Shown piece by piece: positions 1 to 40,645 of a stretch of 64,000 bases of DNA. Source of the stretch: Escherichia phage 235Ecol030PP; the sequence record PP355091.1. The stretch is one strand, 5' to 3'. Under the pieces are notes generated by a model. That model was not told the origin of the DNA and made no database searches. It worked only from the letters and a program-made list of their open reading frames with translations. The stretch's first letter is position 1; the number at the start of each line of letters is the position of its first letter. A program made the position numbers and the translations under genes.

Positions 1-626
1 AAGCAGAAGAAGAAGTAGAAAAAAATAAAGAAGAAGCCGAAGAAAAAGCTGAGAAGAAAATCGCTGAGCAAGCTTCTAAATTCCTTGACCATCTTGCAAA
101 AGAATGGCTCACTGAAAATAAATTAGCAGTAGATAAAGGCATCAAAGCCGAACTGTTTGAATCCATGCTTGGTGGATTGAAAGAGCTCTTCGTTGAACAC
201 AACGTTGTTGTTCCAGAAGAATCAGTTGATGTTGTAGCTGAAATGGAAGAAGAACTGCAAGAACACAAAGAAGAATCAGCTCGTCTGTTCGAAGAACTCA
301 ATAAGCGTGACGCATATATCAATTATGTGCAGCGTGAAGTGGCATTGAGCGAAAGTACTAAAGATCTGACTGAGTCTCAAAAAGAAAAAGTCTCTGCTCT
401 GGTCGAAGGTATGGATTATTCAGATGCATTCTCAAGTAAATTGAGTGCAATCGTAGAAATGGTGAAGAAATCTAATAAAGATGAAAGCACTATTACTGAG
501 AGTATAAATACTCCTGATACTGAAGCAGCCGGACTGAATTTCGTCACTGAAGCTGTAGAAGATAAATCTGCACAAGGTGCAGAAGATATTGTAAGTGTAT
601 ATGCGAAAGTCGCATCTCGTTTCTAA
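1..626 (+). CDS. 22: Prohead core scaffold protein gp22, 5' truncated by window edge (open frame from position 3)
   Basis: Open frame with no stops from window start; acidic, Lys/Glu-rich; sits immediately upstream of gp23 as in T4. Confidence 0.7.
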   Translation, partial: AEEEVEKNKEEAEEKAEKKIAEQASKFLDHLAKEWLTENKLAVDKGIKAELFESMLGGLKELFVEHNVVVPEESVDVVAEMEEELQEHKEESARLFEELNKRDAYINYVQREVALSESTKDLTESQKEKVSALVEGMDYSDAFSSKLSAIVEMVKKSNKDESTITESINTPDTEAAGLNFVTEAVEDKSAQGAEDIVSVYAKVASRF

Positions 627-644
627 TTTTAAAGGTTAACACAA

Positions 645-2210
645 ATGACTATCAAAACTAAAGCTGAACTTTTGAACAAATGGAAGCCATTACTGGAAGG
701 TGAAGGCCTGCCGGAAATCGCTAATAGCAAGCAGGCTATTATCGCTAAAATCTTCGAAAACCAGGAAAAAGATTTCGAAGTATCCCCTGAATATAAAGAC
801 GAGAAAATCGCTCAGGCATTTGGTTCTTTCTTGACCGAAGCTGAAATTGGTGGTGACCACGGTTATAATGCTACCAACATCGCTGCAGGTCAGACTTCTG
901 GCGCAGTAACTCAGATTGGCCCAGCTGTTATGGGTATGGTACGTCGTGCTATTCCTAACCTGATTGCTTTCGATATTTGTGGTGTTCAGCCGATGAACAG
1001 CCCGACTGGCCAGGTATTCGCGCTGCGCGCAGTATATGGTAAAGATCCAATCGCTTCCGGTGCTAAAGAAGCATTCCACCCAATGTATGGTCCAGATGCA
1101 ATGTTCTCTGGTCAGGGTGCTGCTAAGAAATTCGCTGCTTTGAAAGCAAGTGATACTCTTGAAGTCGGAACTATTTACACTCACTTCTTCCAAGAAACTG
1201 GTACAGTATATCTGCAAGCTACAGCAGCTAAACAAATTGATTCAGGCGCATCTGACGCAGACAAATTAGATGCTGAAATTAAGAAACAAATGGAAGCTGG
1301 TGTACTGGTAGAAATCGCTGAAGGCATGGCTACTTCTATCGCTGAACTTCAGGAAGGTTTCAATGGTTCTACCGATAACCCATGGAATGAAATGGGCTTC
1401 CGTATCGATAAACAAGTTATCGAAGCTAAATCTCGCCAGCTGAAAGCTGCTTACTCTATCGAATTAGCACAAGACCTCCGCGCTGTTCACGGTATGGATG
1501 CTGATGCTGAACTGTCTGGTATTCTGGCTACCGAAATCATGCTGGAAATCAACCGCGAAGTTGTTGATTGGATTAACTACTCCGCACAGGTTGGTAAATC
1601 TGGTATGACCCTGACTCCGGGTTCTAAAGCTGGTGTATTCGACTTCCAGGATCCAATTGATATTCGTGGTGCTCGCTGGGCGGGTGAATCCTTTAAAGCT
1701 CTGTTGTTCCAGATTGACAAAGAAGCAGTTGAAATTGCTCGTCAGACCGGTCGTGGTGAAGGTAACTTCATTATCGCTTCCCGTAACGTAGTTAACGTTC
1801 TGGCTTCAGTTGATACAGGCATTTCTTATGCTGCACAGGGTCTGGCTACCGGCTTCAACACTGATACTACCAAGTCAGTATTTGCTGGTGTTCTGGGTGG
1901 TAAATACCGTGTATATATCGACCAGTATGCTAAACAGGATTATTTCACTGTAGGTTATAAAGGTCCGAACGAAATGGATGCTGGTATTTACTATGCTCCA
2001 TATGTAGCTCTGACTCCGCTGCGTGGTTCCGATCCGAAGAACTTCCAACCGGTAATGGGATTCAAAACTCGTTACGGTATCGGTATCAACCCATTTGCAG
2101 AATCCGCTGCTCAGGCTCCGGCTTCTCGCATCCAAAGCGGTATGCCTTCTATTCTGAATAGCCTTGGTAAAAACGCTTACTTCCGCCGTGTATATGTTAA
2201 AGGTATCTAA
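645..2210 (+). CDS. 23: Major capsid protein gp23
   Basis: 521 aa, N-terminus MTIKTKAELLNKW; length and sequence match T4 gp23 from memory. Confidence 0.95.
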   Translation: MTIKTKAELLNKWKPLLEGEGLPEIANSKQAIIAKIFENQEKDFEVSPEYKDEKIAQAFGSFLTEAEIGGDHGYNATNIAAGQTSGAVTQIGPAVMGMVRRAIPNLIAFDICGVQPMNSPTGQVFALRAVYGKDPIASGAKEAFHPMYGPDAMFSGQGAAKKFAALKASDTLEVGTIYTHFFQETGTVYLQATAAKQIDSGASDADKLDAEIKKQMEAGVLVEIAEGMATSIAELQEGFNGSTDNPWNEMGFRIDKQVIEAKSRQLKAAYSIELAQDLRAVHGMDADAELSGILATEIMLEINREVVDWINYSAQVGKSGMTLTPGSKAGVFDFQDPIDIRGARWAGESFKALLFQIDKEAVEIARQTGRGEGNFIIASRNVVNVLASVDTGISYAAQGLATGFNTDTTKSVFAGVLGGKYRVYIDQYAKQDYFTVGYKGPNEMDAGIYYAPYVALTPLRGSDPKNFQPVMGFKTRYGIGINPFAESAAQAPASRIQSGMPSILNSLGKNAYFRRVYVKGI

Positions 2211-33322: not shown

Positions 33323-33825
33323 TTAAAAGTATTTTTTAAAACTCATCATAACTTTATCATCAACATCATTATCAATCTGTGCAACAAGATAAGATGACAG
33401 TTCTACTTCTTGCGGCGCGGATTGAACATTATCAGAATTAAGATATTCACGAATCCAAGGATATGGATGTTTAACCGGAGCATCAGTAATTGGGCATGGA
33501 AGACCGCACTGTTTCATACGAGATACAGTTAAGTAATCAATAAAGCTCCACATGCTATTTGTATTTAATCCAGGAACATCGCCATCTTTAAATAAATGAA
33601 CTGCCCAATCTTTTTCTTGGCGGTTAACTTCCATGAAAATATCAACTGCTTCTTGTTCACACTCTTGAGCAATTTTAACCCATTCATCGCCATCAGTGCC
33701 AAGTTGAAGTTGACGAATAATATATTGAGTGCCTTTAAGGTGAAGCTGCTCATCACGTGCAATGAACTTCATAATTTTGGCATTACCTTCCATGATTTCC
33801 ATGTTCTTATGGAAGTTAAAGGTAC
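33323..33825 (-). CDS. nrdB: Ribonucleotide reductase small subunit NrdB, exon 2
   Basis: Continues the exon 1 frame: ...SFA-C-TFNFHKNMEIMEGNAK...; Cys codon split t|gt across the intron. Confidence 0.85.
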
Positions 33826-34914
33826 CGTATGTTCGATTGAGCTCGCTAATTCTCAACCCGTTCTCTTATGAACTGCTACATATTACTATGCAGACCAGAC
33901 TATATCACAATCCCAGAGGGATTCTCCCCATTTCGAGTCGCTTGACCCTACGTCCGAAGACTAGTCGTTGAACCTTGCTTTGCAATTGTCGCCGTGCCAT
34001 CGTTTATATGTTGATGGTGATAAATCTTTCTTATCACAATATGGACAATTCAATTGAATTCTATTTGGATTTAATTTACATCTGTCATTATGTTTTAGAT
34101 AAAATCCAGGACCTTTACCAATGTGACCGCAGAAATCACATGTGATTTCTTTTTGTGCAGGATGGGTCCCGTTCTTAACCATTTCTAATGTTTTTGCTGA
34201 TGTTCTTTTCTTATGGTCTTCTGACAAGAAATGATGCGAACCGTCATTTACCCGTTTTGATTGAGTTTCTGACTGCATTTTACCACCGCAAAATACATGA
34301 GTACCTTCTTTTATAGCTGCAATATTGCGTTCTTTAACTTTTGCAATATGCTCAGCTTGTTGAAAATTATGTATACCTAATGCAACTCTATTTAAATTAG
34401 ATTTACGCTGTATTTCACCGTCTAAAAGATGAAATGTACCATTTTCTATCTTAGATTTAATAGAGGCAATATTTTTAGCTCGTACTTCAGGAATATTAAA
34501 AATCTGGATTTCTCTAGATTTTGCGGCTTTAGAAGCTAATTCAGAAATTTCTTCAGGAGAATATTTCATTCTAAGCTTTATAGCATGACAAGCCTGGTAA
34601 TCTTTTTGAGCTAAATGTATATCATAATGTTCCTGTATAGAAAGGCACATCAAATTATCTAAATCATTATTTTCACGGTTACCGTCTTTATGATGGATTT
34701 CGTATGTTCTTCCATCAGAATCTTTAGGTATAGGTCCGTTAGCATCTATCCAAATTTTTCTATAGTTCAATTGTGCATCCTCTTAAAAGTATAATCATAT
34801 TCATATTATACTAATTAAAGGTGCAAGCAAAACCTTGGCTGCTAGTTTTCCATAAAGGACTTTCCAGCAATTAAAGGAGTTTTCGATAAACGTTACCGTT
34901 TAAAGGCGCATTTT
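33826..34914 (-). mobile_element. Group I intron in nrdB (1089 nt) with homing endonuclease ORF
   Basis: Interrupts conserved NrdB frame; 5' exon ends in U, intron ends in G; size fits a full-length version of the T4 nrdB intron. Confidence 0.8.
33961..34770 (-). CDS. Intron-encoded HNH homing endonuclease (I-TevIII-like), TTG start
   Basis: 269 aa; HNH motif EIHHKDGNRENNDLDNLMCLSIQEH; C-terminal Cys-rich zinc finger; AAGAGGA Shine-Dalgarno 8 nt before TTG. Confidence 0.85.
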   Translation of the reverse strand: MNYRKIWIDANGPIPKDSDGRTYEIHHKDGNRENNDLDNLMCLSIQEHYDIHLAQKDYQACHAIKLRMKYSPEEISELASKAAKSREIQIFNIPEVRAKNIASIKSKIENGTFHLLDGEIQRKSNLNRVALGIHNFQQAEHIAKVKERNIAAIKEGTHVFCGGKMQSETQSKRVNDGSHHFLSEDHKKRTSAKTLEMVKNGTHPAQKEITCDFCGHIGKGPGFYLKHNDRCKLNPNRIQLNCPYCDKKDLSPSTYKRWHGDNCKARFND

Positions 34915-35590
34915 ACGCAAAAGATACATAAAAACGAATAGCTTCCAATGCGTTGATTACATGAAGGCAAAGATAAAGAGATTTCATTAGTGCTCGTTTA
35001 GCTTCGGCTTCTTGTTTAATAGCTCGGTTTAAACGAAAGACGGCATCAGGAGATTCTTTAGCTAATTCTACAAATTCTTTAGCATTTTCCCATTCACGGG
35101 TCTTCTTAAGAACATCATCATAATAGCGACCGATAGATTCAGCACGTTTCATGATAGCTTCATCTAATACAATCTCATCAAATACCTTAGCAGGGTCATT
35201 GAACAAGTTACGCATGATATGGGTATATGAACGACTGTGAATAGTTTCGCTAAAAGTCCATGTTGCTACCCATGTATCAAGGCTTGGATCTGAAATCAAT
35301 GGCATAAGCACAGCAGACGGTGCACGCCCCTGGATGGAGTCTAACAATGACTGGTATTTTAAGTTATTGATAAATATAGATTTTTGATGTTCTGGGAGCT
35401 TATTAAACTGTGCAGCATCCATCATCAAGTTTACTTCTTCCGGACGCCAGAAAAATGAGAGCGAACGTTCAATAAGTTCTTCAAATACCTTATGTCGTTG
35501 AATATCATAACGTGCAATTCCAAGACCTGAACCGAAGAACATAGGTTCTGTTAAAACATCAACTGGATTTGTATTAAAAACTGTGCTCAT
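34915..35590 (-). CDS. nrdB: Ribonucleotide reductase small subunit NrdB, exon 1
   Basis: MSTVFNTNPVDVL...LEAIRFYVSFA; ferritin-like diiron motifs. Confidence 0.85.
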
Positions 35591-35641
35591 AATTTTTCCT
35601 CTTAGTTAATAGATAGTGACTCGTCCATGAGTCAAATTATA

Positions 35642-37906
35642 TCATAATTTACAGGATGAACAATCTTCAGCTTTTGGAGTTTCTATTTCATAATCATCAG
35701 TACCAGAACCATCACGGGTATTATGATAATAGAAATTTTTAATGCCATAATACCATCCGTATAGCATGTCATCAATCATTATTGACATTGGAACCTTGCC
35801 TTTAGGGAAGATTTGGGGGTCATAGTATGTATTCGCTGAAGCTGATTGACATACCCATTTCAGCATAATAGCTACCTGCGTAAGATAAGGTTTATTACCT
35901 TTCTTAGCTAATTTCCACGTATAATCATATAGGTCTATGTTATGCTCAATATTGGGCACGACTTGATTAAAGGAGCCCTCTTTTGATTCTTTAACAGAGA
36001 CTGGTCCACGTGGAGGCTCGATACCGTTTGTACTGTTAGAAACTTGGGAAGATGACTCACATGGCATAAGTGCTGATAATGTGCTATTACGGATGCCAAA
36101 GAGCTTAAGGTCTTCCCGCAGCGCCGACCAGTCACAAACGTATTTTGGAGCTGCGATTTGGTCAATCTTTTTATTGTACCAGTCGATAGGTAATTCGCCT
36201 CGAGACCAACGAGTGTCTGAATAATATTCGCAAGGTCCTTTTTCTTTGGCGAGCTTAATGGATGCTTTAATGAGTCCATACTGTAATCTCTCAAATAGTT
36301 CATGTGTTAAATCGTTAGCATCTTCATAAGAAGCAAAGTTACTTGCCAGCCAAGCCGCATAGTTGGTAACACCTACACCGAGGTTACGACGCTTTTTAGC
36401 TTTTTCTGCTTCAGGAACTGGATATCCTTGGTAATCCAAAAGATTATCAAGAGCACGAACTTGAACTTCTGCCAATTCATTAATTTTATCTTGGTCTTGC
36501 CAGTCAAAATTGTCTAATACGAAGGCAGAGAGAGTACAGAGCCCAATTTCAGCATCAGGGCTATTCACATCATTTGTTGGAATAGCAATTTCACAACACA
36601 AGTTACTCTGGCGAATAGGCGCCTTTTCACGAATAAACGGAGTATAGTTATTCGTATTATCAATGAACTGCACATAAATCCTTGCTGTTCCTGAGCGTTC
36701 AGTCATGAGCAATTCAAATAGTTCACGGGCTTTAATACGCTTTTTACGAATATTAGGGTCTTTTTCTGCTGCTTCGTATAATTCACGGAAACGGTCTTGG
36801 TCTTTAAAATAAGAATAATAAAGCTCGCCACTCATTTCATGCGGACTGAACAAAGTAATGTAATCGTTCTTTCCGAATCGTTCCATCATCAAATCATTCA
36901 GCTGAACACCATAATCCATATGACGAATGCGGTTTTCTTCTACGCCTTTGTTATTTTTCAAAACGAGAAGATTTTCAACTTCCAAATGCCAAATAGGATA
37001 ATAAGCAGTAGCAGCGCCGCCACGAATTCCACCCTGTGAGCATGATTTAACTGCAGTCTGAAAATGTTTCCAAAAAGGAATAACACCGGTATGACGCACT
37101 TCACCCATGCCAATCTTAGAACCTTCGGCACGAATCATACCTACGTTAATTCCAATTCCAGCGCGTTTAGAGATATATTCAACAATTGAAGCGGAAGCCT
37201 TATTGATAGACTTCAATGAATCTCCTGCCTCAATAACAACACATGAACTAAACTGTCGAGTCGGAGTACGGCAACCAGCCATAATAGGAGTTGGCAATGA
37301 AATCTGTCGAGTAGATACTGCTTCATAAAAACGAATAACATGTTTTAATCTATCAACAGGTTCATCTTGATGCAATGCCATTCCAATAGTCATAAATGCA
37401 AACTGTGGAGTTTCATAAATTTGACCAGTGGTTTTATCTTTAACTAAATATTTTTCTTTTAATTGCATCGCCCCGGAATAAGTAAATTCCATATCCCGTT
37501 CGTGCTTAATTTTTGATTCTAAAAATGTAATTTCTTCTGCTGAATATTTTGACAATAATTCAGGGTCATATTTACCTTCATTTACACAGTAAGAAATATG
37601 GTCAATAAATGAACGTGGTTCATACTGCCCATAAACATGCTTACGAAGAGCGAACATTAAACAGCGTGCAGCTACATATTGATAATCAGGCTCTTCAACC
37701 GAAATAGAATTCGCAGCGGCCTTAATGACAATAGTCTGAATATCATCAGTTGTCATTCCATCACGGAGATAAGATTTAATATTTTCATATAATTCATAAG
37801 GATCTACTGATGTTCCTTCAGCTGCCCAAGATAAAACTTTAATAATTTTTTGTGGGTCAAAGCTCTGAGAAACACCACTACTTTTGATAACATTAATTAA
37901 TTGCAT
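35642..37906 (-). CDS. nrdA: Ribonucleotide reductase large subunit NrdA
   Basis: 754 aa, T4 length. Confidence 0.92.
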   Translation of the reverse strand: MQLINVIKSSGVSQSFDPQKIIKVLSWAAEGTSVDPYELYENIKSYLRDGMTTDDIQTIVIKAAANSISVEEPDYQYVAARCLMFALRKHVYGQYEPRSFIDHISYCVNEGKYDPELLSKYSAEEITFLESKIKHERDMEFTYSGAMQLKEKYLVKDKTTGQIYETPQFAFMTIGMALHQDEPVDRLKHVIRFYEAVSTRQISLPTPIMAGCRTPTRQFSSCVVIEAGDSLKSINKASASIVEYISKRAGIGINVGMIRAEGSKIGMGEVRHTGVIPFWKHFQTAVKSCSQGGIRGGAATAYYPIWHLEVENLLVLKNNKGVEENRIRHMDYGVQLNDLMMERFGKNDYITLFSPHEMSGELYYSYFKDQDRFRELYEAAEKDPNIRKKRIKARELFELLMTERSGTARIYVQFIDNTNNYTPFIREKAPIRQSNLCCEIAIPTNDVNSPDAEIGLCTLSAFVLDNFDWQDQDKINELAEVQVRALDNLLDYQGYPVPEAEKAKKRRNLGVGVTNYAAWLASNFASYEDANDLTHELFERLQYGLIKASIKLAKEKGPCEYYSDTRWSRGELPIDWYNKKIDQIAAPKYVCDWSALREDLKLFGIRNSTLSALMPCESSSQVSNSTNGIEPPRGPVSVKESKEGSFNQVVPNIEHNIDLYDYTWKLAKKGNKPYLTQVAIMLKWVCQSASANTYYDPQIFPKGKVPMSIMIDDMLYGWYYGIKNFYYHNTRDGSGTDDYEIETPKAEDCSSCKL

Positions 37907-38748: not shown

Positions 38749-39067
38749 CATTATGTTCAGATAAGGTCGTTAATCTTACCCCGGAATTATATCCAGCTGC
38801 ATGTCACCATGCAGATCAGACTATATCTTCAACTTGTTAAAGCAAGTTGTCTATCGTTTCGAGTCACTTGACCCTACTCCCCAAAGGGATAGTCGTTAGG
38901 CATTTATGTAGAACCAATTCCATTATCAGATTTTACACGGTAAGTAACTAATCCTGATGAAATTATTAAAGGGTAGTCCTACAATTTAGCACGGGATTGT
39001 CTACTAGAGAGGTTCCCCGTTTAGATAGATTACAAGTATAAGTCACCTTATACTCAGGCCTCAATTA
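38749..39067 (-). ncRNA. Group I self-splicing intron in td, ORF-less (319 nt)
   Basis: - strand begins UAAUUGAGGCCUGAGUAUAAGGUGACUUAUACUUGUAAUCUAUCUAAACGGGGAACC, matching the T4 td intron 5' end from memory; ends AUAAUG; no ORF. Confidence 0.85.

Positions 39068-39615: not shown

Positions 39616-39616
<1 letters not shown>
39068..39616 (-). CDS. td: Thymidylate synthase, exon 1
   Basis: From ATG 39616 (MKQYQ...); exons total 286 aa as in T4 TS. Confidence 0.88.

Positions 39617-40645
<1,029 letters not shown>

Follow-up and report, generated by a model that had tools for sequence, protein, structure and literature searches.

An RB3-type nrdB group I intron carrying a full-length I-TevIII gene in Escherichia phage 235Ecol030PP

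Organization of the interrupted nrdB gene

The DNA analysed here, referred to as the window, is a stretch of 64,000 nucleotides from Escherichia phage 235Ecol030PP (sequence record PP355091.1). The nrdB gene is located on its minus strand and is divided into exon 1 (34915..35590) and exon 2 (33323..33825, stop codon included) by a group I intron of 1089 nt (33826..34914), all three on the same strand. The I-TevIII homing endonuclease gene (33961..34770, minus strand), consisting of 269 codons plus a stop codon and starting at TTG, is located in the P6a loop of the intron. The intron was classified as the RB3-type long form of the T4 nrdB intron by alignment with T4 and 11 relatives. Both exons were assigned from the list of open reading frames (ORFs) and the spliced translation, supplemented by the junction, equal to that of T4, for exon 1 and by comparison with an intronless allele for exon 2.

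In the ORF list, exon 1 corresponds to a frame of 225 aa (34913..35590) and exon 2 to a frame that includes GTFNFHKNMEIMEG and stops at 33323. Exon 1 ends with ...RFYVSFA followed by a single T, which gives U at position -1 of the 5' splice site, and the first bases of exon 2 are GT, completing a Cys codon split as T|GT. Upon joining of 34915..35590 to 33323..33825, an open frame of 1179 nt was obtained, encoding a 392-aa NrdB with ...SFACTFNFHKNMEIMEG... across the junction. Read from 34914 to 33826, the intron begins with AAAATGCGCC and ends with ...ACATACG. The T4 nrdB intron is 598 nt long; in T4 nrdB the same two boundary strings delimit 598 nt, and the splice sites are base-for-base equal to those of the window. 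At the 3' intron boundary, the RB3-type alleles carry ACATAACG whereas T4 and the window carry ACATACG.

When the exons were joined virtually, 300 nt spanning the splice junction found an unbroken match in 138 phage records. In the intronless phage vB_Eco-B1.1, only the final Ala codon of exon 1 differed near the junction, being GCA in place of GCG. Since the boundaries equal those of T4 and the intronless alleles run contiguously over the junction, the exons are correctly delimited and what separates them is a discrete insertion. An earlier note on this DNA, made from the sequence alone, had placed an interruption of 1089 nt within the SFACTFNF segment, with the Cys codon split t|gt, and its coordinates proved to be exact; the doubt it had raised itself, that the nrdB frame might be continuous and its boundaries wrong, was settled by the intronless alleles and by the open 392-aa frame.

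The sequences flanking the insertion were compared among 13 aligned intron-bearing sequences. On the exon 1 side (34915..34975), the last 24 bases before the intron were invariant in all 13, and the last 30 bases in all except SHFML-26, while at positions -31 to -55 two haplotypes largely prevailed. Within the intron body, T4-type and RB3-type variants form a mosaic. Such a pattern in the aligned sequences agrees with co-conversion and recombination in the course of homing.

The ribozyme core is predicted to lie in two halves on either side of the endonuclease gene (all positions on the minus strand). The 5' half (34823..34914), assigned from helix positions and from the fold of a mini-intron, and found likewise in phage vB_EcoM_CE1, includes the internal guide GCGC (34906..34909), P2 (34888..34901), the 5' strand of P3 (34874..34879), P4/P5 (34840..34869) and the 5' strand of P6/P6a (34823..34838). 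The 3' half (33826..33983), assigned from a partial Rfam match, the mini-intron fold and a compensatory change in P9, includes the 3' strand of P6a/P6 (33973..33983), the 5' strand of P7, GACUA (33962..33966), P7.1 (33952..33961), P7.2 (33935..33948), the 3' strand of P3 (33924..33929), P8 (33909..33923), the 3' strand of P7, UAGUC (33898..33902), P9 (33876..33893), P9.1 (33860..33873), P9.2 (33836..33857) and the terminal G of the intron (33826). For folding, the ORF was deleted and P6a was closed with a tetraloop, leaving a mini-intron of 254 nt. Its fold yielded P2, P3 (CUCCUU/GGGGAG), P4, P5, P6/P6a, P7.1, P7.2, P8, P9, P9.1 and P9.2, with P7 (GACUA/UAGUC) present as the expected pseudoknot. 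In P1, the exon sequence ...GCGU pairs with the guide of AAAAU GCGC to form a U.G pair at the 5' splice site, and the last base of the intron is G. Between the T4-type alleles and the RB3/window-type alleles, the alignment revealed a compensatory change from G-C to A-U in P9. The last eight codons and the stop codon of the endonuclease ORF overlap P6a', P6', J6/7 and the 5' strand of P7.

At the gathering threshold of Rfam, the td intron was the only report in the window. Under relaxed thresholds, RF00028 (gathering score, 50 bits) matched the nrdB intron at 33876..34116, over its 3' half only, with 33.9 bits (E = 1.4e-6). The T4 nrdB intron, established in the literature as self-splicing, scored 35.7 bits, while the ORF-less nrdB intron of CE1, the core of which differs from that of the window by two single-base indels, scored 68.6 bits over the full model. 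Because the score of T4 is equally low and that of the ORF-less CE1 copy is high, the sub-threshold score of the window intron likely comes from the large P6a insertion (840 nt) and not from a missing core. The group I assignment made by the earlier note was upheld by the T4 insertion site, the complete core in the mini-intron fold and the score of the CE1 copy.

The endonuclease reading frame and its start codon

The 269-aa protein is identical to RB3 I-TevIII at 268 of 269 residues. The single difference is Y23 in the window for D23 in RB3; since Y23 was found in 10 of the 11 full-length relatives sampled, RB3 is the outlier. Complete identity was found with the product in several deposited Tequatrovirus genomes, namely WilhelmHis, ECO07P1, phiD1, ELT1 and ESh24. 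It matched Pfam HNH_3 over residues 4-48 (E = 6e-13), and PHROG 12324, 'intron-like DNA endonuclease', over residues 1-269 of 269 (E = 1.9e-193). A PDB sequence search with the 269-aa protein returned no meaningful relative. The HNH catalytic motif (residues 26-48, with H26, H27, N39 and H48; 34627..34695, minus strand) was located from the Pfam match and from published mutagenesis, in which each of H26A, H27A, N39A and H48A abolished cleavage by I-TevIII (PMC1865063). The same work identified C211/C214 and C242/C245 as forming two zinc fingers required for DNA binding (PMC1865063). With TTG taken as codon 1, all eight residues (H26, H27, N39, H48, C211, C214, C242 and C245) are found at these numbers in the window protein. 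Judged by its sequence, the ORF of the window is I-TevIII, and the 269-aa HNH endonuclease that the earlier note had described is full-length. For the C-terminal region, that note had reported one zinc finger: the finger is there, but a pattern search of the translation gave two CX2CX12-13HX3C motifs, at residues 211-231 and 242-263 (33982..34140, minus strand).

The pN/pS ratio among 12 alleles was 0.12, a value that is consistent with purifying selection and indicates that the gene is functional. Separately, a marginal match to Pfam FlgM (anti-sigma-28) was obtained at residues 74-114 (34429..34551, minus strand) with 26.2 bits against a cut-off of 25. This match is probably spurious, since the NCBIfam FlgM model gave 18 bits against a threshold of 40.75 and the segment sits in repeated DNA-binding modules of the 'K..NIA.IK...GTH' kind.

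The TTG codon is preceded by AAGAGGA and a 7-nt spacer; an in-frame TAA is located five codons upstream, with neither ATG nor GTG in between. The first in-frame ATG of the ORF is codon 41. The claim that the ORF has no in-frame ATG was therefore too wide, ATG codons being present from codon 41 onward, but it holds for the part of the frame before the HNH histidines. The same start is found in the RB3 entry of 1991 (X59078.1), in which the CDS is given as 191..1000 and base 191 opens a TTG, and a CDS of 810 nt is annotated in the records of 8 of the 11 full-length relatives (RB3 and seven others). The numbering of residues used by Robbins et al. 2007 (PMC1865063) likewise implies a TTG start. 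A literature search for I-TevIII together with UUG found no paper. The TTG start, as called from the letters alone, agrees with these sources and is not new, being known from the GenBank entry of 1991 and the published numbering.

The upstream control region and the reading of the element

A predicted RNA hairpin (34774..34825, minus strand) covers the Shine-Dalgarno sequence AAGAGGA (34778..34784). The folding energy is -14.9 kcal/mol (z = -4.2), with the Shine-Dalgarno sequence paired to upstream intron sequence, and the structure predicted for RB3 is the same. For all three intron endonucleases of T4, the ribosome-binding site is accessible in late transcripts but sequestered in the long transcripts of the early and middle periods (PMC2988022, PMC3014915). 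In the hairpin loop, alignment located a late-promoter box (34798..34805, minus strand), which reads TATGAATA in the window. Immediately upstream of the box lies a sequence resembling the homing site (34806..34831, minus strand; 18 of 24 bases identical to the exon junction), which is the putative operator proposed for autorepression of I-TevIII (PMC2988022).

An A-to-G change at 34802 (minus strand) converts the box from TATAAATA to TATGAATA and is private to the window. Of the 11 full-length relatives aligned, 10 have TATAAATA, as does T4, and in ESh24 the box is deleted. When the 61 nt around 34802 were compared with GenBank phages by BLAST, none of 126 intron-bearing records was identical, and a pattern scan of IMG/VR for the promoter region TTAGTATAATATRAATATGATTATAC gave no match. 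The change is the only private feature of the element; it could be a sequencing error, and it might lower the expression of I-TevIII.

Two alternative readings of the element follow from existing annotations, and both were rejected. If the endonuclease began at the first in-frame ATG (codon 41), giving 229 aa, it would agree with the CDS in the records of WilhelmHis (L002, 1902..2591) and TadeuszReichstein (L005, 701..1390). Such a protein would, however, lack H26, H27 and N39, three of the four catalytic residues essential for cleavage; codon 41 is not preceded by a Shine-Dalgarno sequence, in contrast to the AAGAGGA 7 nt before TTG; the original RB3 entry and the records of eight of the eleven full-length relatives (RB3 included) give the 810-nt CDS; and the PHROG 12324 alignment begins at residue 1. 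We consider this start highly improbable, and the codon-41 CDS in those two records is an annotation artefact. The other reading takes nrdB for a split gene in which a free-standing HNH gene separates two independently translated halves and no intron exists, as is suggested by several automated annotations that list two 'beta subunit' CDSs and an endonuclease. This has next to no probability, in view of the complete group I core on both sides of the ORF, boundaries equal to those of the T4 nrdB intron, which is self-splicing according to the literature, the absence of a separate start codon for exon 2 at the junction, and the position of the division within the Cys codon.

The remaining alternative concerns the activity of the element rather than its anatomy. 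The ORF may be intact while the element is functionally silent or declining, with the A-to-G change stopping or lowering late transcription of I-TevIII; splicing of the intron would then continue whereas its homing would have ceased, an early stage of the cycle of loss that the td intron has completed. Such a reading would account for TATGAATA in place of TATAAATA at 34798..34805, unmatched over 61 nt in the 126 intron-bearing records, and it fits the tight adherence of T4 late promoters to the consensus, which is perfect at 32 of 50 sites (PMC2988020), and the frequent loss of the ORF in this system, as seen in the 491-nt deletion of T4, the complete deletion of CE1 and the td intron of the window. 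On the other hand, some of the listed T4 late promoters depart from the consensus at a single position and late promoters of variant sequence support transcription in vitro (PMC2988020), the ORF, Shine-Dalgarno sequence, hairpin and operator-like site are all unchanged, and a one-base difference may reflect an error in sequencing or a neutral mutation of very recent date. We regard silencing by this change as rather unlikely. If true, it would represent the first, regulatory step of homing-endonuclease decay, in a genome where the td intron is already without I-TevI and the nrdB-targeting mobE is absent.

The element is, with high confidence, an RB3-type T-even nrdB group I intron with a complete I-TevIII gene in its P6a loop. 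The present analysis established its anatomy, its near-identity to the characterised element, its predicted fold and the continuity of the exons. Splicing, the timing of expression, cleavage and mobility are expected by analogy with T4 and RB3, and the terms 'ancestral' and 'mobile', used for the window intron in the earlier note, likewise derive from the literature. By this analogy, the intron RNA would fold as a ribozyme of the subgroup IA type and would excise itself from the nrdB transcript after U34915 and G33826, restoring the frame of the reductase small subunit. In the long early and middle transcripts, the hairpin would hide the ribosome-binding site of the endonuclease; late transcripts would begin at the gp55-type promoter in the hairpin loop and thus be without the 5' arm of the hairpin, making translation from UUG possible. 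A dimer of I-TevIII would then bind intronless nrdB across the insertion site via the two zinc fingers, the HNH domain would cut 14 and 16 bp upstream, and repair off an intron-bearing genome would copy the intron into the cut allele.

Relatives, neighbouring loci and known systems

The nrdB intron and I-TevIII are textbook T-even biology. The element was described in 1991 and characterised biochemically in 2007, and its full-length form is in 84 deposited records; it is thus already known. These 84 phage records, found by megablast of the region, contain most of that region at 97-99% identity, the intron itself being 98-99% identical, and include RB3, RB5-7, RB9 and RB10, in which the ORF is annotated as I-TevIII and nrdB as a two-piece join. 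Over the intron with exon flanks (33700..35050), the window is 98.1% identical in DNA to RB3; the intron is 99.0% identical to that of WilhelmHis. In the correct annotation, nrdB is one spliced gene and the endonuclease is I-TevIII, with 269 aa counted from the TTG; two nrdB fragments, or an endonuclease truncated to 229 aa, are given in several deposited genomes, and the listing of nrdB as two genes is found in many records. Beyond correct annotation, the importance of the element is small.

The td intron of the window (38749..39067, minus strand) is 319 nt long, scores 73.8 bits with RF00028 and has no ORF. The equivalent splice sites in the T4 locus (L003) are separated by 1017 nt. Direct comparison of the deletion edges with T4 placed the deletion junction near 38962, with no more of I-TevI retained than about its final 60 bases. 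A further 24 phage records, HP3, Shinka, U115 and Pinarejo among them, contain this junction without interruption. The loss of the endonuclease from this intron, which the earlier note had claimed, is therefore confirmed, and the ORF-less td intron is a known natural variant.

Two further features of the neighbourhood were observed. Between nrdA (35642..37906) and the start of nrdB (35590), the gap at 35591..35641 contains neither mobE nor nrdB.1; mobE, a free-standing HNH endonuclease gene, is located between nrdA and nrdB in RB3 and T4, and WilhelmHis is without it. Between frd and td, the window has an ORF of 68 aa (39616..39822, minus strand) matching PHROG 9550 (E = 1.3e-45), whereas frd and td of T4 overlap directly. 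An nrdB intron with intact endonuclease, a td intron without one and the lack of mobE make up one more natural combination, which fits the accepted cycle of gain, decay and loss of the T-even homing endonucleases.

The closest characterised system is that of RB3 (X59078.1; KM606994.1; Eddy and Gold 1991; PMC1865063), in which the gene, the insertion site and the ORF in the P6a loop are the same. The TTG start, the Shine-Dalgarno sequence and the hairpin are also shared. RB3 differs from the window in the length of the intron, 1090-1091 nt against 1089 nt owing to two 1-nt indels, in D23 for Y23, in the box TATAAATA for TATGAATA, and in carrying mobE between nrdA and nrdB, which is absent from the window.

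T4 (NC_000866) has the splice sites, the ribozyme core, the promoter/hairpin region, its box reading TATAAATA, and the 3' end of the ORF in common with the window. In contrast, 491 nt are missing (codons 23 to about 186, with a frameshift), leaving the endonuclease dead. The deletion edges are the imperfect repeats GAAGAaCATA and GAAGAcCATA, and the frame from TTG stops after 22 codons. P9 of the T4 type differs from that of the window by one compensated pair. The statement in the earlier note that T4 carries a deleted, inactive version is thus borne out, the T4 copy being the window intron minus 491 nt with the ORF frameshifted. In the published view, the T4 intron arose from the RB3 form by deletion (PMC1865063, PMC2790892), and it is moved in trans by MobE (PMC2790892).

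The nrdB intron of vB_EcoM_CE1 (ON229909.1) shares its ribozyme core and the regulatory hairpin upstream with the window, but the whole ORF has been deleted between 7-nt direct repeats, ACAATTG, which in the window flank the ORF at 34774 and 33989. The promoter, hairpin and Shine-Dalgarno sequence of CE1 (L013, 901..1201) are retained. In the record of this phage, exon 2 bears the erroneous annotation 'major capsid protein'.

Among other intron endonucleases, I-TevI of the T4 td intron resembles I-TevIII in that the ORF is looped out from P6a, a late promoter lies within a hairpin sequestering the ribosome-binding site, and the operator resembles the homing site; I-TevI, however, belongs to another nuclease family (GIY-YIG) and functions as a monomer. 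I-HmuI of SPO1 shares with I-TevIII the HNH module, the extended modular DNA-binding region and the location in a phage group I intron. In contrast to I-HmuI, I-TevIII carries two zinc fingers and, acting as a dimer, breaks both DNA strands (PMC1865063).
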